This document shows positions 12,295-22,512 of a stretch of 64,000 bases of DNA, in pieces. Every line of letters starts with the position of its first letter. The stretch's first letter is position 1. The position numbers and the translations under genes were made by a program. Where the stretch lies: positions 1,049 through 65,048 of the IMG/VR virus record IMGVR_UViG_3300017565_000004. One strand, given 5' to 3'. Source of the DNA: a virus. The notes below the pieces were generated by a model. The model searched no databases. It was not told the DNA's origin and saw only the letters and a list, made by a program, of their open reading frames with translations.

Positions 12295-12741
12295 ATGACG
12301 CCAAAACAACGCGCAAAACTAGAAGCGCGATTAGACGGTCGGCAACGGCTCGCGGCACTTGCTTGCGTCGAGCGCGAATTTAGTCCGGAAGATGAACGTA
12401 AAGGATTCGAACAGATTGCGGAGGAAGCCGGCGTAAGTCGTAACACACTGTACGAATGGCGGACGCAGAATCGTGCATTTATCGAATATATGAACGCTAT
12501 ATCTGACGATTACTTATCAGGCAAACGGGCGGTCGTATATAAACGTTTGATGCAGCTGATCGATACGTCGCAGCCATCGGTTAAGGCGATTGACCTGTTT
12601 ATGAAGCGTGAGGGCTTGATTACGGCGAAAGTCGAGGTCGACACGTCATCATCCGGCAGCGGCACGAAGTCTAACGATGATTTAGCGGCTGAACTTGCGG
12701 AATTGGACGAGCTTTTAACCGATGACGGAGCTGATTCGTAA
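12295..12741 (+). CDS. Terminase small subunit (HTH)
   Basis: HTH EQIAEEAGVSRNTLYEW; coupled to large subunit. Confidence 0.8.
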   Translation: MTPKQRAKLEARLDGRQRLAALACVEREFSPEDERKGFEQIAEEAGVSRNTLYEWRTQNRAFIEYMNAISDDYLSGKRAVVYKRLMQLIDTSQPSVKAIDLFMKREGLITAKVEVDTSSSGSGTKSNDDLAAELAELDELLTDDGADS

Positions 12742-14498
12742 TGTTCGTCGATAACCGCTGGCTTGACCGGACGGAGCGCGGTGAACGGTTAACGTTACTC
12801 CGTGACCGTGCTGCCAAGCTACGTAAACTAATCGAAGCGAAGCTCGCTACGGAATATCACGTCGAGCAATACCGGGAATCAGTCGCCGAGTTAAAACGGG
12901 TTATTCGTATACACCGCGCGGAAGAGGATGTCGCTTATTTTACGTACGAGTACCTTTCCGACGGTGGAAATGCGGATAACGAGGATAACATCGTACGACA
13001 CGGCGAGGACGGTACGCCGCACGATCCGCTAGATCAGATAGCGCCAATACACCGCGAGTTCTTCGATTTATGTGATTACGTAGATCACGTAGAGAGGAAC
13101 GCCCGTCTTGCGATAGCGGCCGCCCGTGGACACTCGAAATCCGGTATGTTCTCGAACGCATTTCCGCTGCATCAAATCGTATACCGCAAACGAAAGTATA
13201 TACTCGAAATATCCGAAACCGATACGTTAAGTAAAAAGCTTATCGGATGGATTAATAAGCAATTGAAATATAACGCCAAGCTCCGCGAGGACTTCGGCGT
13301 TCTTTTGCATGAGCGGAATACACAGAACGAAAAGGACAACGAGGAAGCGTTTATCACTACGTCCGGCACGTTAGTCGAGGCGTCGTCGTCCGGTAAACAG
13401 CTCCGCGGTAAGCGGCACGGTTCGTATCGTCCCGATTTAGTTATCGTCGATGATCCGTCGTCAACGAACAACGAGGGAACGAAAGAGGCGCGCGAAAAGC
13501 TCGTACACTGGTTTAACTCCGTTGTCGTGCCGATAGGAACGAAGTCGACCGCGATTATACTCGTCGGTACGATGGTATCGGCGACGGGACTGCTTAATCA
13601 CGTACTCAAACGTAAGGACTTCAAGTCCTCGTTTCACGGCGCGGTTATATCGGAGCCGAGCAATCCGGCGTTGTGGGAGCAGTATCTCGAAATTTACGGA
13701 CGCGCCGAATCAATGGCGGAAGTGGACGAGTTTTACAACGCAAATAAAGAAGCGTTAGAAGAAGGCGTCGAACTTGCATGGCCGTGGCGGTGGACGTATC
13801 GGGCGTTAATGCACGAAAAGTTTAACATGGGCACGCGCGCATATAACTCGGAGTTTCGTAACTTGGCGTTTAGCGAGGACGAGCAGTTCTTCTTTCCGGA
13901 GAATTACGGTTATTATCGTTTCGAGTACGATGCCGGCCGCCGGTACGTTCGTTATAACGAGTTACGTATCCCGGTCGATGAGTTAACGATTAGTGGCGCG
14001 TGGGACATAGCGTTAGGTAAGAATGCGCGAAGCTGTTATAACGCCGTACTAACCGTTGGCCGCTACGAAAAGACCGGTCACATATTCGTATTAGACGAGT
14101 ACGCATCGAAGGAGCCGGCGCACGTATACATCGACTTAATCGTCGAGAAAATGCGCGAATGGCGCCATCACATATTTAGCGTAGAGACGATAAACGCACA
14201 GCACGAATTTTACCGCCAGCTACAGGAAGCCGCACGGAAAGCCGGTATCACGCGGACGAAAATTAACGATGTAAAGTCGCATAAGTCGTCGAAAGAGGAA
14301 CGTATCGAATCGTTAGAGCCGATGTGTCATAACAAAACGCTCGTATTTAACGAAGGACACCGGATGTTACTTGATCAGATGCAGCAATATCCTCACGGCG
14401 ATTTTGTGGATTCCGTTGATGCCTTGCAACTTTCGGTTGAACACGTTGCGCGAGCGAAGAAAGTCGTACGCAATAAGCCGGCACTATTTTATAAGTAA
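12741..14498 (+). CDS. terL: Terminase large subunit
   Basis: Walker A AARGHSKS, Walker B LVIVDD, nuclease AWDIA...HGDFVDS. Confidence 0.92.
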   Translation: MFVDNRWLDRTERGERLTLLRDRAAKLRKLIEAKLATEYHVEQYRESVAELKRVIRIHRAEEDVAYFTYEYLSDGGNADNEDNIVRHGEDGTPHDPLDQIAPIHREFFDLCDYVDHVERNARLAIAAARGHSKSGMFSNAFPLHQIVYRKRKYILEISETDTLSKKLIGWINKQLKYNAKLREDFGVLLHERNTQNEKDNEEAFITTSGTLVEASSSGKQLRGKRHGSYRPDLVIVDDPSSTNNEGTKEAREKLVHWFNSVVVPIGTKSTAIILVGTMVSATGLLNHVLKRKDFKSSFHGAVISEPSNPALWEQYLEIYGRAESMAEVDEFYNANKEALEEGVELAWPWRWTYRALMHEKFNMGTRAYNSEFRNLAFSEDEQFFFPENYGYYRFEYDAGRRYVRYNELRIPVDELTISGAWDIALGKNARSCYNAVLTVGRYEKTGHIFVLDEYASKEPAHVYIDLIVEKMREWRHHIFSVETINAQHEFYRQLQEAARKAGITRTKINDVKSHKSSKEERIESLEPMCHNKTLVFNEGHRMLLDQMQQYPHGDFVDSVDALQLSVEHVARAKKVVRNKPALFYK

Positions 14499-14516: not shown

Positions 14517-16058
14517 TTGACGAAGCTATTCCAGCCTGGCGCTCAATACCCGCCGGCATCCGAAATCGAACGACTCGCGAAGTATAAACGGTCACGCGCG
14601 ATATTCGACGGCCGCCTATACGAAGTATACGAACGCGCATCGGATTTACTAAAAGATACGCCGGCCGCCGCACAACTCGCTAAGTTGTATATCGCAGTCA
14701 ACCTAATGGACGTCATTATTACGAAGCCGGCCGATTTAATGGTCGGCGATCCGCCCACGTTCGAATCCGGCGAGCGCGACGACACGGCCGAACAGCAGGC
14801 GCTTAATCGTATCGTAGAGGAAAACGATATCTTACAACTCGTACACGAATCGGTCATAGGCGCCGGCATTCGAGGCGACGCGTGGTATAAGACGTATTAT
14901 GCGCCGCGGCAAGATTACTCAGCGTTAGAATCCGCAGGCCTTCCGATACCGACCGACGTTGTGCCGGAGCCAATTATCGAAGCAGTCGACGCCAATTACG
15001 TATTTCCGGAGCTCGCTAAAGGTTCCCGTAAGAAATTCCGCGCAATTAACGTCGCCTATATCGAATGGGTCGACGAAGGTAAGGATGAAGTACCGTATCT
15101 GAACGTTGAACGTCACTTGCCGGGCTATATCGTATACGAACGTTACAAGGCGTACTCGACGGGCGTTGACAATTCGTTTGGCGTGCCGATACCAACGTTT
15201 ATGATAGGTGATGCAGTACCGACGGGGCGCGACGAAGATATTGTAACAACAGGCGTTGACCGTCCGCTTATATTCCACGTGCCGTACAAATCGGTTGACG
15301 ATGATTGGCGAGGCATCGGCGGTATTGAAAAGCTAGAATCCGTACTCGCGGCGATTAACGACCGCATCGTACAAATCGACTATATTCTGTGGAAGCACGC
15401 CGATCCTATCGCGTACGGTCCGGACGATATAGACGGTGGCGATGATGGCGGAAATGCCGTGCGTTGGGGCGGTAAATATATTCCGGTCGGCAAAGAGGAC
15501 GTAACGCCCGGTTATATGACGTGGAGCGGCGAGCTTGACGCGGCATTTAAGGAATTGGACATGCTCCTATCGATAGTATTCGTTGAATCTGAAACGCCGC
15601 AGTGGCTGTTCGGTACGGTTATCGCAGGCTCCGATAAAGGTGGCACAGGCACGTCACACACGGACGGCGCGGCAATTAAAGCGCGGTTCATGCCGATACT
15701 TTCGAAGGTTAAACGTATCAGAACGCACTTCGACCGGGCGCTCCGCGACGCATTATGGACGGCGATGGTACTCGAAAATTACGCGAACGAAGATGTCGAG
15801 GGCTTTACGCCTTACGATCCGGTATATCCGAAGATTAACTGGCGCGACGGTATTCCTCGTAACGAGAAGGAAGAAGCGGAGATTTATCAGATTCGTACCG
15901 GTAACAAGCCGACGCTCGACGTTAAATCCGCTATTAAACGTATGGACGCTTACGACGATATGCAGGCGGACGAAATCGCGCAGCGGATTGAGGCGGAGGA
16001 AAAGGCGGCGGCATTCGTCGATAGTTCGGTATTTAACGGTGGCGGCGGTGATAATTAA
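14517..16058 (+). CDS. Portal protein (SPP1 gp6-like)
   Basis: 513 aa after terL; YMTWSG, GAAIKARF, INWRDGIP. Confidence 0.88.
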   Translation: MTKLFQPGAQYPPASEIERLAKYKRSRAIFDGRLYEVYERASDLLKDTPAAAQLAKLYIAVNLMDVIITKPADLMVGDPPTFESGERDDTAEQQALNRIVEENDILQLVHESVIGAGIRGDAWYKTYYAPRQDYSALESAGLPIPTDVVPEPIIEAVDANYVFPELAKGSRKKFRAINVAYIEWVDEGKDEVPYLNVERHLPGYIVYERYKAYSTGVDNSFGVPIPTFMIGDAVPTGRDEDIVTTGVDRPLIFHVPYKSVDDDWRGIGGIEKLESVLAAINDRIVQIDYILWKHADPIAYGPDDIDGGDDGGNAVRWGGKYIPVGKEDVTPGYMTWSGELDAAFKELDMLLSIVFVESETPQWLFGTVIAGSDKGGTGTSHTDGAAIKARFMPILSKVKRIRTHFDRALRDALWTAMVLENYANEDVEGFTPYDPVYPKINWRDGIPRNEKEEAEIYQIRTGNKPTLDVKSAIKRMDAYDDMQADEIAQRIEAEEKAAAFVDSSVFNGGGGDN

Positions 16059-16870
16059 TGACCGAGCGCGATATCGAAACGTTAATCAAAGCATATAAAG
16101 ACGCTGTTAAACGTATCCGTGCCGAACTACTATCGCTCGACTTAACGGATATGACGCGGGCCGTAACGGAAGCGGCTCTCCGCGAAGTCGCCGGCATCTT
16201 ACGTGATCTTAACGAAGAATCCGCCGCATGGGTCGCGGAACATATACCGGAAGTCGCACGGCAGGCGGTCGCGGAAACAATCGTATCGGTCGGTGTGGCG
16301 TCTACGATAAAGGAAGCGCGCGAGATCATGACGTTTAGTCGTATGAATCAAACGCTAGTTAACGCAGTTATCGAGGATACGCAAGCGGATTTACTCGCTG
16401 TTACGCAGAATATCGACCGGCGAGTACGTTCGACCGTCCGTAAAGTTACCGCTGATTCAATGCGTGCGAATATGGCGGCGGGTATTAACGGTCGTAAAAC
16501 GATAAGCCGCGACATATTACAGAATATGCGGGCGGAACTCGGCAAGGCGGTCGAAACCGGCATTATTGACGCAGCCGGCCGCCGATGGAAACCGGAAGTA
16601 TACGTAGACATGGTCGTACGGACGAAAACGGCAGCGACGGCTCGTGACGTAAGAATAAACGAAGCAGTATCACGCGGCGTTTTATATGGGCGGATATCGA
16701 CGCATGGCGCGACGGACGCTTGCCGCAAATACGAAGGTAAAATCGTAAAGCTAGTACCGGATGCGCCCGGTGACTATCCGTATATTGGCGAACTACCGCG
16801 TAACGAAATATTTCATCCGAACTGTAAACACGTAGTTTTACCGGTTAGAAATCCGGAGCCGAGGGCGTAG
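16058..16870 (+). CDS. Minor capsid protein (gp7/MuF-like)
   Basis: DAAGRRWKPEVYVDMVVRT...CRKYEG...FHPNCKH. Confidence 0.85.
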   Translation: MTERDIETLIKAYKDAVKRIRAELLSLDLTDMTRAVTEAALREVAGILRDLNEESAAWVAEHIPEVARQAVAETIVSVGVASTIKEAREIMTFSRMNQTLVNAVIEDTQADLLAVTQNIDRRVRSTVRKVTADSMRANMAAGINGRKTISRDILQNMRAELGKAVETGIIDAAGRRWKPEVYVDMVVRTKTAATARDVRINEAVSRGVLYGRISTHGATDACRKYEGKIVKLVPDAPGDYPYIGELPRNEIFHPNCKHVVLPVRNPEPRA

Positions 16871-16902: not shown

Positions 16903-19900
16903 GTGGGAATATCATTTCGCGAGGCCCTGCGACTTAATCTAACAAGCCCGGTAGCTAACGACGTAAAACTAGGATATATCATAAGGGAACTCCAAGAGAA
17001 GATTGAAGCGTTGGAGGAAAATCCCCCTGCCCAAGAGCCGCTATATTTAATTACAGGTGGCGAAGGCTATAGTAAAACAGGTACGTGGCAATCGTCATCC
17101 CTAAAGTCGTATAACGATTCGCCAACCGAGTACGCCAACGTTGGGGATAGCGTAGCTGTTTGGACAACTTACGCTCCTAGAAACGGGAACTACGATATAT
17201 TTGTGTGGTATCCCGAATCAACGTCGAGTAACAAAACTGCAAATTACGATATTATAACGCCGCTTGGTACGTGGAAGGTAGTTATAGATCAAACGGTTAA
17301 TGGCGGTAAGTGGTCTAGGCTCGCGACAATAAGGGGACAAAAAGGCGCTGGTATTACCGTTAGGTTAACGTCAAAGGCAGGCACCTCGACGAGAACAGGT
17401 GCTGTACAAATATCGTTTACAAGAAACGAAGCGGATGAGCCTTCTCCGACAGCACCGCAGGATACTACGAGCGTTTTAGTATTTGCTAACCAATCGGGAT
17501 ACGATCTTGATAAACCTAAGAGAGTAACAGTGACGAATGTTTCTGACGGCACAGCGTTTGCTGTAAAACGAGCAGACGACAACACGACAGTTTACACAGG
17601 GACTGTTACCGGACAAGTTGCTGATTTCACTTCGTACAATCCGGCAGGTGCAGCGACTACGCAATATTATGTAGAGTGTAACGCTGTAAAATCGGATAAC
17701 TTTAAGATCAACAAATACCTAATGGCAAGAGTAAGTACCGTTCCAGCATTGAGATTTATGGTAGAATCGCGATCCGATACATGGAAGCCTGGATTAAATG
17801 GACTTGGTTGGAGGGATTCGCATCAGTTTTCGTTTGAGCTACCTTCTTTAGTATGGCAGTACATGGCTAATCCATCCGTATATGACCGTATGCCTCACGG
17901 AGTTACGCATCTATCAGACTCAAAATTTGCAGCGCTTCGAACACAAAATGAGCCCGACATTGTTTGGCTGATTAAGTTTGGTGCTATGGTTTATTATGAT
18001 TTAGTTGTTAATAAAGGCAAGCAGTTACATGCACTAGTAAAAGCGCAGCTCGCCTATTTCTTATATCTCTACCCTCATATTAATCAATGGGTGGACGAAA
18101 CGCTTTATACGCAAATTAGAGATATGACGGTTACGCAGTGGTCCGTTGCAGGAGTGAGTTCTGACCTCCAATGGTACGATGTCGGATCGTCTACAGACAA
18201 CAACCTGTTAGCGACGCAAAGTGTAATCGGCGATATTAAGGGTTCACAACCGCCGGGCTACGCAATCTTACCGAATCTACTAATGTACGAGGTTGCCGTT
18301 CGTGACGGATTAGCTAACCCGCAGCAATACATGACAGCGGCGGTAAACAACGCTAAGTGGCTCGTAGATAACGTAGATTTAAGCAATCCGTCGTACACGA
18401 AAGGTCAGCGCATGTCCGAACACGTTACGCTTACCGCGCTTGCGTATATGCTTGAAAAGTATCCAGCGCAGGCACCATCCGGAACACAGGCGAAAATTGA
18501 CGCTTGGGCCGCTAAGATGATTGCGCGTTCTAATAACTTATGGGATTTACGTAAGTATTCGGACACTGCTGCGGGCGATTCGTTGTCTCAATGGACAGTC
18601 GGCGAATCAACGAACGAGCCGGGCAACATCGCAGGCTTCCCGTCAGTAGCATTAGCCGCTAGGCGAGTAATCGGTAATAGCGCGTACAAATCGAGACTTA
18701 TGGAACTTGCCGTATCGCATATCGACCACATGTTTGGACGTAACCCGTTCGGCAGACACTTCTCGCACGACGCGGCGACCGAAATAGAAGGCGTTAAACG
18801 TGGATGGGCCGTAGAGTATCCGGGCGTAGGCGCCGGCGATCTCGGTTCCGTACCGGCTGTTATCGATGGCTCACCGAAAGAATCAGCGTATCCATTTGCG
18901 CCGACCGCCGATCCGGGCTACGTCGAAGGTTGGGTGGCGCATAATACCGCATGGAATATGTCACTTGCGTATTCGGCGGCTGACGACGTAGAAGTTAAAG
19001 TATACGATTCGTCCTTTACGTCCGAAGTGATGACCGTTAACTCCGGCGACACAATCGGTATTCAACTTAAAGCGCCGTTAAATCTCGATCCAAGCGCCGT
19101 AGAGATGGGCGTAGTTAAAGTAACGTTAAGCAGCGGCACTGTCGTTGACGTGACGGTTACGGAAGTAACTGCGGACGATTTTTACTTCCGTGGGACATAC
19201 GTAGTCCCTGCGAATACTACTTACGTTAATGTATCGTATGGTTACGGATTGTTTAAGAAAGAAACACGCGTAAGTATCGGTGGGGAACCGCCGCAACAAG
19301 ATACAGAACCGCCAAGCGTGCCAACTAACTTAACGAGCGGAACGCCTACGACAGATTCCGTACCGCTTTCGTGGACAGCATCGACAGATAACGTAGGAGT
19401 AACCGGATATCGTATAGAAGGCGGAGCGAGCACGGTAGACATCGGAAATGTGACGAGCTATACATTAACGGGCCTATCGCCATCGACAACGTACGCGTTT
19501 ACGGTAAAAGCAAAGGATTCGGCGGGCAACGTTTCTAGCGCATCTAATGCCGTTACGATCACAACTGCCGCAGAGGTTGAACCGACGCAAGTTGCTTACG
19601 ATACATTTACGAGAGATAACGGACCGCTCGGAGTATCAGAATCCGGTCAAACGTGGGACGTTACCGCATCTAGTCAAGGTAGCGCATGGACGGTCGTAGA
19701 CGGAAAAGCGGCTTATACGGCGACTAACTTAGGGCTGGCGTTAATCGATGTAGGAACGCCTAACGCAAAAGTTTCCGCTAAGATCACATATCGCGCAACG
19801 GATGGATTAGCTGGCCGCGTAAAAGACTTTAGCAATCACTATATTGTACGTATAAGCAGTGCAGGCTTCGGAATGTTTAGGATTGTGAGCGGAGCATCTA

Positions 19901-20112
19901 CGTCAATCGGTAATTACGCGTTTACACCGACGGCTGGGCGAGAGTATCAAGTCGCTATGGAGTTTGACGGTACAACGATAAAAGGCTACTTAGACGGCGA
20001 GCTTAAAATCACAGCGCTAAACGAAACAGCCTACGCTACAGAGACAAAATTCGGATTGCGAGCTTCAAATTCCGTTAACGGTCGTTACGATGATTTTGTA
20101 ATCGAAGCTTAA
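16903..20112 (+). CDS. Multidomain glycoside-hydrolase-like protein: anchor peptide, CBM-like, Ig-like, GH9-like barrel, FN3, beta-sandwich
   Basis: ANQSGYDLDKPKR (CelD_N-like), HMFGRNPFG and EGWVAHNTAW (GH9-like), DTEPPSVP..LSWTASTDNVGVTGY (FN3); RBS GGAGGTG fits GTG 16903. Confidence 0.7.
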   Translation: MGISFREALRLNLTSPVANDVKLGYIIRELQEKIEALEENPPAQEPLYLITGGEGYSKTGTWQSSSLKSYNDSPTEYANVGDSVAVWTTYAPRNGNYDIFVWYPESTSSNKTANYDIITPLGTWKVVIDQTVNGGKWSRLATIRGQKGAGITVRLTSKAGTSTRTGAVQISFTRNEADEPSPTAPQDTTSVLVFANQSGYDLDKPKRVTVTNVSDGTAFAVKRADDNTTVYTGTVTGQVADFTSYNPAGAATTQYYVECNAVKSDNFKINKYLMARVSTVPALRFMVESRSDTWKPGLNGLGWRDSHQFSFELPSLVWQYMANPSVYDRMPHGVTHLSDSKFAALRTQNEPDIVWLIKFGAMVYYDLVVNKGKQLHALVKAQLAYFLYLYPHINQWVDETLYTQIRDMTVTQWSVAGVSSDLQWYDVGSSTDNNLLATQSVIGDIKGSQPPGYAILPNLLMYEVAVRDGLANPQQYMTAAVNNAKWLVDNVDLSNPSYTKGQRMSEHVTLTALAYMLEKYPAQAPSGTQAKIDAWAAKMIARSNNLWDLRKYSDTAAGDSLSQWTVGESTNEPGNIAGFPSVALAARRVIGNSAYKSRLMELAVSHIDHMFGRNPFGRHFSHDAATEIEGVKRGWAVEYPGVGAGDLGSVPAVIDGSPKESAYPFAPTADPGYVEGWVAHNTAWNMSLAYSAADDVEVKVYDSSFTSEVMTVNSGDTIGIQLKAPLNLDPSAVEMGVVKVTLSSGTVVDVTVTEVTADDFYFRGTYVVPANTTYVNVSYGYGLFKKETRVSIGGEPPQQDTEPPSVPTNLTSGTPTTDSVPLSWTASTDNVGVTGYRIEGGASTVDIGNVTSYTLTGLSPSTTYAFTVKAKDSAGNVSSASNAVTITTAAEVEPTQVAYDTFTRDNGPLGVSESGQTWDVTASSQGSAWTVVDGKAAYTATNLGLALIDVGTPNAKVSAKITYRATDGLAGRVKDFSNHYIVRISSAGFGMFRIVSGASTSIGNYAFTPTAGREYQVAMEFDGTTIKGYLDGELKITALNETAYATETKFGLRASNSVNGRYDDFVIEA

Positions 20113-20198
20113 CGGCTGACCACACGTACACGTCAATAAACTGTTTACGGATGTATTATTATAGCCGACGGGCTTTAACCGGTGGAGGTAACGATATT

Positions 20199-20891
20199 AT
20201 GACGCAAATCGAACGAAATAAATACGTATTACCGCTAAACTTACAGACGTTTTCTGAACCGGAGGAACCGGGCGATCCAGTAGAACCGGAACCAAAGCCG
20301 GAGCCGAAAGTCGTAACGATGACGCAGGACGAACTAAACGACATGATTGCGAAACGTCTCGCTCGTGAAACGAAGAAATTCAGCGATTACGACGATCTTA
20401 AAACGAAGCTTTCCGACTATGAAAAAGCGGAAGCAGAGCGTAAGCAGGCGCAAATGTCCGAACAGGAACGTATCCAGGCGGAGCTAGAAGCGGCGAAGCA
20501 GAGGGCGGAAGAGGCGGAGAAGGCACGCGAGCAAGCGTTAAGCGCCGCGAACCAACGCGCAATTAAAGCGGAATTTAAGCTTGCGGCGGCAGGCGTTAAT
20601 ATCCGAGGCGACGCGCTAGACGATGCGTTTTTGCTCGTAGATAAGGCGGGTATTTCCGTAGACAATGACGGTAACGTTGTAGGTGTGAAAGAGGCGTTGG
20701 ACGCGCTGATTTCGAAAAAGCCGTATCTACTTGACGTTAAGCAGCCGCAGTCTCCGAAAGTTATCGGGGAGCCGAACAATCCGAAAGAGGAAGAACGTAG
20801 ATCACTACAGGCGCAATTAGAGGACGCAAAGAAGCGTAAGGACTTCGGCAAGGTCGTCGAAATCTCTAACAAATTAATCAACTTTAAGTAA
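20199..20891 (+). CDS. Capsid scaffolding protein
   Basis: LPLNLQTFS leader, TQDELNDMIAKRLARE, coiled coil, KPYL. Confidence 0.88.
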   Translation: MTQIERNKYVLPLNLQTFSEPEEPGDPVEPEPKPEPKVVTMTQDELNDMIAKRLARETKKFSDYDDLKTKLSDYEKAEAERKQAQMSEQERIQAELEAAKQRAEEAEKAREQALSAANQRAIKAEFKLAAAGVNIRGDALDDAFLLVDKAGISVDNDGNVVGVKEALDALISKKPYLLDVKQPQSPKVIGEPNNPKEEERRSLQAQLEDAKKRKDFGKVVEISNKLINFK

Positions 20892-20893
20892 AA

Positions 20894-20923
20894 AGTCAAG
20901 CGACATTAACGCTTGACTTTTTT
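20894..20923 (+). terminator. Terminator-like hairpin between scaffold and capsid genes
   Basis: AAGTCAAGCG-ACATTAA-CGCTTGACTT followed by T run. Confidence 0.7.
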
Positions 20924-20956
20924 ATTTATAAAAACAATTCTAGGGGGAATTTATCA

Positions 20957-22078
20957 ATGACAGCACTAACTTATGATTTTAAGGACCAAGTACGCCAATT
21001 AGAAGCAGGTATTTCGTTAATTATCGAGGATCAGCCGACGCTGCTTGGCCTAATTGGTATCGACGGTAATTCACTTACTCAAACGAAGTACGAATGGATG
21101 AGTGATAACCTTAACTCCAACCGCGCTAACGTAAAAACTGCGCTAACTAACAGTGCAACTTCGCTAGTAGTTAACGACGGTGACGGTGAAAAATTCCGCG
21201 TTAATGCTATCGCGGTAATCGGCGAAGAGTATATCAAAATCACCGCTATTTCCGGCGACACACTAACGATTGAACGTGGTTTCGACGGTACGACAGCGGC
21301 GGCGGCTTCTGCGGGTGCTGAAATTCGTATCGTTGCACGTCCGCAACTACAAGGCGCGGGTATCGGGTCAGACGAGAGTCACGACCGTTACACAGATTTT
21401 AACTACACGCAAATCATCGAGCGTTATGCGGCTGTTTCCGGTACTCAAATGGCGGTTAACACTTACAACGTGACTAACGAGCTTGACTACCAAGTACAGC
21501 TACGTTTGAAAGAAACTGCGCGCGAGCTTAACGACTGGCTGATCTACGGTCGTCGTATTCAAGGCGGTAAAAATACGCCAGGAATGACGGGCGGTCTACT
21601 TTACTTCGCGGAAAAAGGCGGTTCCTTCAAAAAGAACATGTCTGGCGGAGAAGTCGACGCAAAAGCGCTAAACGACGCATTGGAGGAAATCCTTAAACGT
21701 GGTGGTTCCGCTAATACGATCCTTACGAATACTGCGGGCGCTCGTCAAATCTCGAAATTGGCAGGCGATACAATTCGTACTGAACGTACCGACAGCGCAA
21801 CTGGTCACCGTATTCAAACGTTCGTGTCCGATATCGTAGGCGGCAGCGTAGCTACTATCGTTGTTGATCCGAACTTCCCGAAAAATAAAATCGCGCTATT
21901 TGACCGCGATATCCTTAAAATCAATCCGCTTGCTGGACGTGCTCTATACGACGTTGACGCTTCTGTTCCGGGCGCTGACTACGTGGCTCGTCAAATCCGC
22001 GGTGAGTACGGCGTAACAGTTAAAAACGCGAAAGAGAAAATCGCTATTATCGAAAATATCTCTAATAGCGTGTCTTAA
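20957..22078 (+). CDS. Major capsid protein
   Basis: Follows scaffold; KYEWMSD, NYTQIIER, MTGGLL, QIRGEYG. Confidence 0.9.
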   Translation: MTALTYDFKDQVRQLEAGISLIIEDQPTLLGLIGIDGNSLTQTKYEWMSDNLNSNRANVKTALTNSATSLVVNDGDGEKFRVNAIAVIGEEYIKITAISGDTLTIERGFDGTTAAAASAGAEIRIVARPQLQGAGIGSDESHDRYTDFNYTQIIERYAAVSGTQMAVNTYNVTNELDYQVQLRLKETARELNDWLIYGRRIQGGKNTPGMTGGLLYFAEKGGSFKKNMSGGEVDAKALNDALEEILKRGGSANTILTNTAGARQISKLAGDTIRTERTDSATGHRIQTFVSDIVGGSVATIVVDPNFPKNKIALFDRDILKINPLAGRALYDVDASVPGADYVARQIRGEYGVTVKNAKEKIAIIENISNSVS

Positions 22079-22083
22079 TAAGT

Positions 22084-22103
22084 GGGAGCTTCGGCTCCCT
22101 TTT
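22084..22103 (+). terminator. Intrinsic terminator
   Basis: GGGAGC-TTCG-GCTCCC-TTTT. Confidence 0.8.
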
Positions 22104-22132
22104 ACATTAAATTAGCGGAAGGGTGACGCAGA

Positions 22133-22267
22133 TTGGCAATCTCAGAAAAAGAAGCAGAACGTCTTAACCTAACATCGCCGGCAGCTAACGATATTAAGCT
22201 AGGCGACATTATTAAGGAACTACAGGAGAAAGTGGAGGCCTTAGAAGCAGGAGGTAGTGGTGCTTAA
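22133..22267 (+). CDS. 44-aa putative capsid-binding peptide (not in the ORF track)
   Basis: GAAGGGTGA RBS, TTG start, TAATG coupling to next gene; MAISEKEAERLNLTSPAANDIKLGDIIKELQEKVEALEAGGSGA. Confidence 0.8.
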   Translation: MAISEKEAERLNLTSPAANDIKLGDIIKELQEKVEALEAGGSGA

Positions 22268-22512
22268 TGGCAAAGTATAAAGCGTCTCCGCATTACGACG
22301 TAACGTTCGATAAACGAACGGTTTCTTTCGACATTAACGGAGAATACGAGACACTCGATAAAGACGAAATCGCGGCGTTAGATAAGTTAGTCCCTACGTG
22401 GATTAAACGAATTGACGAACCGGAACCGGAAGTATCCGAAGAAAAACCGGAGGTAAAGGAACCGAAACCGGCAGCCAAAGCCGCTAGTAAGCCGAAAGCC
22501 TCCGCAAAATAA
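22267..22512 (+). CDS. Small head-associated protein
   Basis: Position after capsid gene; low-complexity K/P/A tail. Confidence 0.7.
   Translation: MAKYKASPHYDVTFDKRTVSFDINGEYETLDKDEIAALDKLVPTWIKRIDEPEPEVSEEKPEVKEPKPAAKAASKPKASAK

Follow-up and report, generated by a model that had tools for sequence, protein, structure and literature searches.

A complete virus record in IMG/VR (IMGVR_UViG_3300017565_000004; 65,048 bp with direct terminal repeats) encodes two proteins of very different length that begin with the same short peptide, called the anchor below. The window analysed here is a 64,000-bp stretch of that record (positions 1,049 to 65,048; G+C 48.7%). It belongs to a phage of Paenibacillus-type bacteria, and both genes lie in its siphophage head module. 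In the larger protein, of 1069 amino acids (aa), the anchor precedes what is, by its predicted fold, a probable polysaccharide-cutting enzyme; in the smaller, of 44 aa, it is followed only by a short C-terminal end. Sequence comparison gives good support to the anchor as a modular N-terminal piece with swappable cargo. The best explanation of the whole, which we hold with moderate confidence, is that the anchor is the capsid-docking module of trimeric head fibres, present here in an enzyme-loaded and a minimal form. In window coordinates, the open reading frames (ORFs) concerned are the following:

16903-20112, + strand: 1069-aa ORF (anchor and cargo), GTG start
16903..17016, + strand: residues 1-38 of the large protein, its copy of the anchor (phrog_18880; BLASTP match to the small ORF)
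22133..22267, + strand: 44-aa minimal member of the anchor family, TTG start (phrog_18880)

Both ORFs are present at the stated coordinates. Aligned by BLASTP, the two N-termini are identical at 29 of 38 residues and positive at 33 of 38, without gaps (E 7e-17), which reproduces the identity from which a first-pass annotation of this DNA had proposed a capsid-display system. The PHROG phrog_18880, of unknown function, matches both (E 1.3e-12 for the small protein, 9.6e-8 for the large). At the DNA level 75 of 114 bases agree across the shared stretch, the codons of identical residues are recoded in 18 of 28 cases, and the proportion of differences at synonymous sites (pS 0.83, saturated) far exceeds that at nonsynonymous sites (pN 0.19), a rough estimate based on just 37 codons. 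Saturated synonymous sites and recoded codons point to an old duplication kept at the protein level, rather than to chance or a recent repeat. By tblastn there is no third anchor copy, whether the window alone or all 65,048 bp of the record are searched. A program-made ORF listing starts the large ORF at GTG 16891 (1073 aa); GTG 16903, which gives 1069 aa, is the likely start because it stands 11 nucleotides (nt) after a GGAGG and aligns with Met1 of the family.

The anchor of the large protein consists of a helix, a loop with invariant R10, N12, P16, D20, L23 and G24, and a heptad helix ending in EKIEALE; an AlphaFold2 (AF2) model places helices, with low confidence, at residues 4-11, 16-19 and 21-39. 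In both copies residues 23, 27, 30, 34 and 37 follow the heptad pattern L/I/L/V(I)/L, as read from the BLASTP alignment, and all invariant anchor columns are kept. The first-pass annotation had called the peptide a coiled-coil tag; it is no simple coiled coil but a helix-loop-helix that runs into about 2.5 heptads. The large protein passes into its Pro-rich linker after the same derived EKIEALE junction as is found in the small protein, and this common derived junction makes the two copies probably true paralogues. The small copy is the nearer to the rest of the family: the best family member shares 25 of 32 residues with it and 22 of 32 with the large copy.

The family to which both belong was delimited by an exhaustive HMMER search with the 44-aa query against 1.84 billion representative proteins, which returned 20 matches, all of 40-153 aa and all aligned from residue 1. 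Its members open with 33 constant residues, continue through a linker rich in Gly into fibrous modules of variable kind (repeats of 'GKPSTFPP..HTHT', runs of collagen GXY, or repeats resembling pentapeptides) and close with one of two C-terminal ends. Collagen-like GXY repeats are present in members L020-L030, and one anchor N-terminus pairs with at least two different C-terminal ends. Both the Gly-rich linker and the fibrous or collagen repeats are absent from the two window proteins. A protein identical to the 44-aa product had already been called in a public collection (P0004).

The genomic position of the anchor gene is nearly constant. A tblastn search of GenBank phages found six Bacillus phages; in the two examined (2/2) the anchor gene lies immediately 3' of the coat gene, and in phage 268TH002 it is labelled 'head fiber protein'. 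In a set of 49 loci, 2 taken from GenBank and 47 from IMG/VR by a pattern scan, the anchor ORF starts 46-59 nt 3' of a homologue of the window's coat gene in 48 (2 GenBank, 46 of the 47 IMG/VR) and lies before the head-tail joining genes; in these 48 the coat protein is 47-78% identical to the window's, the anchor protein has 74-158 aa, and there is one copy per locus. The small ORF, which starts 54 nt past the capsid stop, fits this spacing behind an SU10-type capsid gene; the large ORF departs from it, lying behind the minor head gene. A further 17 loci came from scanning contigs of genomes and metagenomes, and 14 of them have the same post-coat arrangement, although some are the same contigs as IMG/VR loci and the counts are not independent. 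The exception among the 49 is the GC-rich contig L047, in which a 376-aa anchor protein follows a 482-aa coat-like ORF; that ORF stays below threshold against SU10-type coats (Pfam E 0.014; hhalign probability 0.7%). Two GC-rich contigs (L047:5986-7116 and L060:4995-6194), one of them labelled as a Coriobacteriaceae metagenome-assembled genome, encode proteins of 376-400 aa with a diverged anchor and an Ala/Gly-rich part that has no Pfam match.

Enzyme cargo on the anchor is not confined to the window. The first-pass annotation had named a search for other cargo fusions as a check, and four such fusions were found, all in Paenibacillus-family prophages and with one glycoside hydrolase family 43 (GH43)-like domain and three GDSL esterases among them. 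A Paenibacillus roseus prophage (L053) encodes a 386-aa protein of anchor, GGGG and GH43-like domain (E 6e-12) in the post-coat slot. In a prophage of Paenibacillus sp. ACRRY (L055), a 397-aa protein joins the anchor to CE2_N and a GDSL esterase (E 5.5e-12); its gene directly follows the minor head gene and precedes the scaffold gene, in the slot that the large gene occupies in the window, and no anchor gene follows the L055 coat gene. The remaining two (L078 and L079) join the anchor to a GDSL hydrolase (E 1e-26 and 1e-25) immediately 3' of the minor head gene. With the window included, enzyme cargo is carried on the anchor in five phages or prophages and in four distinct architectures. The idea of a modular tag thus holds up: a constant N-terminus is combined with fibrous repeats, collagen, GH43-like, GDSL and GH9-like distal parts.

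Of 401 genomes in the family of the P. roseus genome, searched in six frames, 4 have the anchor, in open frames of 395-408 aa; of 91 genomes in the family of the Bacillus paralicheniformis genome 5 have it, in open frames of 90-138 aa. These small numbers suggest a host-linked split between enzyme cargo in the former and fibre cargo in the latter. A word-based search of a 5.8-billion-protein set for other large anchor proteins (587-1871 aa) returned only the window's own protein, and one for longer proteins with the small protein as query returned 2 matches, of 119 and 215 aa. Both are weak negatives, since they missed the fusions of about 400 aa that the DNA-pattern and genome scans found.

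The cargo of the large protein follows the anchor as a chain of domains, and the Pro linker and cargo domains that the first-pass annotation had read from the translation are indeed present:

17017..17040, + strand: Pro-rich linker (ENPPAQEP; from the translation, non-regular in the AF2 model)
17041..17427, + strand: beta-sandwich domain of carbohydrate-binding type (Golvesin_C; Pfam PF25275, E 2.5e-15)
17485..17712, + strand: Ig-like domain of the type that precedes GH9 domains (CelD_N; Pfam PF02927, E 2.7e-6; model strands 199-270)
17719..18984, + strand: (alpha/alpha)6 barrel, GH9-like by fold, residues 273-694 (AF2; predicted local distance difference test score, pLDDT, mostly >90)
18991..19278, + strand: beta-sandwich domain after the barrel (AF2 strands 697-792)
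19318..19563, + strand: fibronectin type III (FN3) domain (Pfam PF00041, E 3.4e-10; FN3 of chitinase A1 in the PDB, E 2e-20)
19588..20112, + strand: C-terminal concanavalin-A-like jelly roll, a probable lectin or carbohydrate-binding module (CBM), with the stop codon (AF2 strands 896-1068)

The AF2 model of the large protein, made from a 50-sequence alignment, has a pLDDT of 86.9. Its top Foldseek matches over the cargo are GH9 enzymes at 12-15% identity (E 5.5e-15 to 1e-10, probability 1.00), among them a Paenibacillus xanthanase (6fhj, E 5.5e-15), CelD (1clc, E 2.4e-13) and GH9 exo-glucosaminidases. D305, E506, D608 and E675 are invariant among the 50 homologues, and the window cargo retains all invariant columns. 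On the strength of this model the barrel is a probable glycoside hydrolase catalytic domain. The flanking domains match sugar-binding parts of other proteins: the Golvesin_C domain gives a profile match to the C-terminal part of a Paenibacillus xanthan lyase (6f2p, E 6.6e-6), and the jelly roll matches Laminin_G_3 below the Pfam gathering score (E 1.8e-4) and, by Foldseek, CBM66 (4b1m). The open-access papers found on golvesin all concerned Dictyostelium.

The cargo core (residues 180-800) is a member of a large family in bacteria: of the 8000 candidates scored, 462 proteins reach E <= 0.001. Named relatives among those listed include several Paenibacillus proteins (54-55% over the whole protein) and one from Clostridium (54%). 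Closest of all is P0027 (59%, again over the whole protein), whose N-terminus is unrelated to the anchor. A tblastn search of GenBank phages with the cargo gave no match.

Docking on the capsid is suggested by two things: the near-invariant synteny with the capsid gene, and the homology of a distal module to a proven capsid decoration protein, gp12 of phage SPP1. The collagen and C-terminal part of family member L020 is identical to the 64-aa gp12 at 34 of 44 residues (77%, E 3e-21). According to the accessible text of Ignatiou et al. 2019 (PMC6813328), gp12 is a trimer at the centre of the coat hexamers, on a ring of Glu197, is present in 180 copies and is dispensable. Its N-terminus is basic and unrelated to the anchor, and the SPP1 coat falls in another Pfam family, Gp13-like, not SU10_MCP. 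A distinct N-terminus and a distinct coat, combined with a common distal part, indicate that the N-terminus varies with the type of coat. The simplest reading of these alignments is that the N-terminus would be the coat-specific docking part and the remainder a shuffled part that faces outwards. From this pattern and the gp12 analogy, we lean slightly towards the view that the anchor docks on the capsid and that the large protein is displayed there.

The presumed docking partner is the major capsid protein. Modelled alone by AF2 it reaches a pLDDT of only 56.8, which is poor; its Foldseek matches are phage capsids and encapsulins, which confirm the HK97 fold and give no information on a docking site. 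A 1:1 complex prediction with the 44-aa protein, run without controls, scored 0.00 in both runs, which speaks neither for nor against binding. The coat protein (window 20957-22078) carries an inserted beta domain at residues ~56-127, the best-predicted part of the poor model, which has matches to PHROGs with a tail-fibre annotation (phrog_8469, E 6e-7) and may be exposed on the surface or serve for docking.

Several observations weigh against the explanation as a whole. Virion evidence is available for no member of the anchor family, and the 'head fiber protein' label comes from a genome announcement in which functions were assigned by BLAST and HHpred. The 44-aa protein gives no BLASTP alignment with gp12, to which it is linked only via other family members, and the accessible text of PMC6813328 does not state which end of gp12 contacts the capsid. 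The large copy of the anchor is off-consensus in places: its Y25, for instance, stands where D or E occurs in 22 of 24 sequences. Bare and loaded forms occur together only in this phage; each of the other enzyme-bearing genomes (n=4) has one anchor match, which makes the co-occurrence peculiar to this phage. The barrel (residues 269-696) has no Pfam family at E <= 0.1 and no GH9 sequence match, and a 50-sequence cargo profile searched against PDB sequences matched only in the sugar-binding and Ig-like parts and not over the barrel; with a sequence-level match absent there, 'enzyme' is a call made from the fold. On the same side stand the occurrence of the same cargo types in tail modules elsewhere, the occurrence of a homologous enzyme with another N-terminus in the same slot, and the ribosome-binding site (RBS) of the next gene within the last codons of the small ORF, which could alone preserve its 3' end. 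Each of these three leads to a different account of the two proteins.

Relatives of the GH9-like protein occur on six IMG/VR contigs, and in three of them (L070, L073 and L075) the relative follows tape-measure and baseplate-type genes (tape measure, Dit, Tal). The L055 esterase, for its part, matches a PHROG annotated 'tail protein' over profile residues 195-547, and no structure places the anchor anywhere. The peptide might then be a virion attachment or trimerisation module that docks off the shell, at the neck, portal collar or tail, with the enzyme acting like a tail-associated depolymerase. We consider this improbable, given that the anchor gene lies just behind the coat gene and before the head-tail joining genes in nearly all loci, that the distal modules are common to the capsid decoration protein gp12, and that enzyme-bearing forms are encoded between the minor head protein and the scaffold.

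Two contigs, L071 and L072, with portals 56-62% identical to the window's and, in L072, a coat 72% identical, encode a 759-aa GH9-like homologue where the window has its large gene, behind the minor head gene and before the scaffold gene, with an Arg/Lys-rich N-terminus replacing the anchor; L072 has no anchor gene at all. The enzyme thus needs no anchor, and a place in the head module is no proof of attachment to the head. In L074 the homologue stands outside the structural genes, and the slot between minor head and scaffold genes is described as a moron site in SPP1 in the accessible text of PMC6316719. These facts would suit a large protein that is a soluble late enzyme, freed at lysis to thin the host's slime, for example, with a peptide that only oligomerises. 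Such an enzyme seems about as improbable as docking off the shell: oligomerisation alone explains poorly why five independent enzyme genes of four architectures share the same 33-residue head-fibre N-terminus, and the anchor stands at residue 1 in all of the representative matches (20/20). To judge from these arrangements, GH9-like and GDSL cargo is the kind of module that phages attach to virions via different N-terminal adaptors, and the virion-type setting of the cargo relatives in other phages also counts in favour of the preferred explanation.

The homologues in these contigs travel in a mobile two-gene cassette (L071:7291-10178, L072:7288-10178, L074:7240-10178) of a 197-215-aa ORF followed by the 759-aa GH9-like protein. 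The first ORF, of 197-198 aa in L071 and L072, belongs to no known family. The cassette occupies the head-module slot in L071 and L072 and lies among non-structural genes in L074.

In the 44-aa protein the anchor (residues 1-32) is joined directly to a C-terminal 'EKVEALEAGGSGA' end that resembles a C-terminal end of the family. Its residues 3-41 also align in register, as a second BLASTP segment (E 6e-4), to the last 40 residues of the 153-aa member P0007, and this alignment makes the protein look like a fibre that has lost its shaft, its anchor now fused in frame to the C-terminal helix end. The small ORF has its own GGAAGGGTGA-type RBS upstream. The next gene, an 81-aa ORF, is translationally coupled to it by a TAATG overlap and has its GGAGG inside the last codons of the small ORF. 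The small ORF could accordingly be a relic of the post-capsid fibre gene left by an in-frame deletion, persisting mainly for a 3' end that holds the RBS and coupled start of its neighbour, with the large protein alone displayed on the head via its anchor. The register alignment makes such a deletion plausible, 44 aa is far below the 74-158 aa of members in this slot, and the slot is empty in L055 and L072, so that loss is tolerated. We nevertheless judge a relic rather unlikely. The reading frame is intact and has its own RBS, the protein has lost none of the anchor positions that are invariant or nearly so, it stands nearer to the family than its large counterpart does, and synonymous sites relative to its paralogue are saturated at a low pN. 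A 40-aa member also exists elsewhere (P0016).

The 81-aa ORF has a conserved N-terminal half and a Lys/Pro/Glu-rich tail, and it has no Pfam or PHROG match. A homologue lies next to the anchor gene in most loci (e.g., L015:6483-6737) and directly 3' of the coat gene in L055 and L072, where the post-coat anchor gene is missing.

Under the preferred explanation of a capsid-docking head-fibre module, the 33-38-residue peptide would be the docking N-terminus of trimeric head fibres or decoration proteins that work like SPP1 gp12, in a fibre family whose host phages would be Bacillus- and Paenibacillus-type siphophages with SU10-type coats. Both window proteins would be made late in infection from the head operon. 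By analogy with gp12 at the hexon centres, the helix-loop-helix and heptads might form a three-chain base on expanded capsids, from which the Pro-rich linker would keep the ~1030-residue sugar-binding and sugar-cutting part off the shell, and the displayed cargo would bind or cut host exopolysaccharide. The 44-aa protein may fill sites as a bare trimer or join mixed trimers, leaving fewer bulky chains per site. Since the two forms have a common heptad helix (ELQEK[V/I]EALE), they would use the same capsid sites, as separate homotrimers or in mixed trimers; trimer formation, enzyme activity and site sharing are all things that we infer. It is doubtful that the small form goes beyond docking and display to tune the number of enzymes. 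A fuller picture is doubtful to the same degree: the capsid as a carrier of GH9-like, GH43-like or SGNH cargo at up to three chains per hexon, with the 44-aa partner setting the count of the 115-kDa enzyme. The proposal in the first-pass annotation that the bare form sets the enzyme copy number therefore gains nothing beyond plausibility, both forms being found together only in this phage.

Around the two anchor genes the head module reads as follows, with the minor head gene forming the left edge of the slot into which the large gene is inserted and the scaffold gene its right edge:

12741-14498: large terminase
14517-16058: portal
16058..16870, + strand: minor head protein (Phage_min_cap2, SPP1 gp7-like; Pfam PF06152, E 5e-16; phrog_4611, E 1.6e-48)
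20151..20891, + strand: head scaffolding protein (Pfam PF06810, E 9e-13; phrog_2303, E 4e-24)
20957..22078, + strand: major capsid protein, SU10 type, HK97 fold (Pfam PF17236, SU10_MCP, E 2e-63; Foldseek)
22084..22099, + strand: terminator-like element, a GC-rich hairpin with TTTT behind it, in the gap from the capsid gene to the small ORF
22267..22512, + strand: 81-aa ORF coupled to the small ORF, with no assigned function (conserved neighbour)

Besides the post-coat hairpin there is a second terminator-like hairpin, with a 13-bp stem, immediately 3' of the scaffold gene (window 20890-20922). A megablast search of GenBank phages with 18 kb of window sequence gave no match. The closest relative, L015, whose portal is 81% identical, has a longer minor head protein of 408 aa with a 100-aa ORF behind it (L015:2418-3644), an arrangement which indicates that phages of this group vary in what lies between the minor head and scaffold genes, comparably to ORFs 8-10 of SPP1.

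Sugar-cutting enzymes of phages are usually placed on tails, and dozens of them on a capsid, if true, would change the picture of how phages move through slime and biofilm, adding enzymatic heads to the known adhesive heads (Hoc, gp12). The anchor itself, at 33 residues, N-terminal and naturally tolerant of cargo from 10 to ~1030 residues, would suit use as a display tag in Gram-positive phages. The idea is directly testable, since enzyme-bearing versions lie in prophages of the cultured Paenibacillus roseus MAHUQ-46 and Paenibacillus sp. ACRRY. Among open-access papers, the searches made turned up nothing about this anchor family and no glycoside hydrolase on a capsid decoration anchor.

Tail-spike and tail-fibre depolymerases combine a conserved N-terminal adaptor with a swappable enzyme, and the anchor proteins follow the same logic, with interchangeable carbohydrate-active cargo behind a short and conserved module for docking at the N-terminus; unlike them, the anchor belongs to a coat-linked gene family and not to the baseplate. 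On the side of the cargo, GH9 enzymes such as CelD (1clc) and 6fhj have the same order of an Ig-like domain and an (alpha/alpha)6 barrel, from which the window cargo differs in having no sequence match to GH9 over the barrel.

Among head proteins, SPP1 gp12 is, like the anchor family, a small non-essential auxiliary protein encoded beside the coat gene, and by eye its C-terminal 'RLEALE...GG' resembles the end of the 44-aa protein. Its gene precedes the coat gene, whereas the family's anchor genes follow it, and its central collagen-like repeats have no counterpart in either window protein. Without collagen and without detectable similarity to gp12, the window proteins belong on their sequences to the anchor family, and not to the gp12 family in a strict sense. 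A tblastn search of GenBank phages with gp12 returned SPP1-like phages only (10 records), and the accessible text of PMC6813328, PMC7602432 and PMC6316719 describes no enzyme-bearing gp12. A further head fibre, phi29 gp8.5, is according to the accessible text of PMC7602432 a trimeric, dispensable alpha-helical coiled coil thought to aid contact with the cell wall. It occupies quasi-three-fold positions and carries no enzyme, and it showed no sequence relation to the window proteins in the Pfam, PHROG and GenBank-phage searches made.

The closest precedent is Enterobacter phage PG7, which, as described in the accessible text of Fokine et al. 2023 (PMC10385173), has a second Hoc-like protein of 511 aa in which the Hoc capsid-binding domain is fused to a GDSL lipase/acylhydrolase. 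Its authors suggest, as a proposal only, that the Hoc module serves to 'functionalize the capsid surface'. Like the window phage, PG7 thus has two proteins with one capsid-binding module, a short one and an enzyme fusion. The two systems differ in nearly everything else. PG7 is a T4-like myophage of Gram-negative hosts, its anchor is a globular Hoc domain that binds as a monomer, and its fusion carries a GDSL enzyme; the anchor in the window is an unrelated 33-residue helix-loop-helix, its cargo is a GH9-like multi-domain part of ~1030 aa, and its short partner has only 44 aa. The concept therefore has a T4-like precedent and involves no new principle; the gain would be a second, unrelated and very short anchor that carries several classes of cargo in Gram-positive siphophages.

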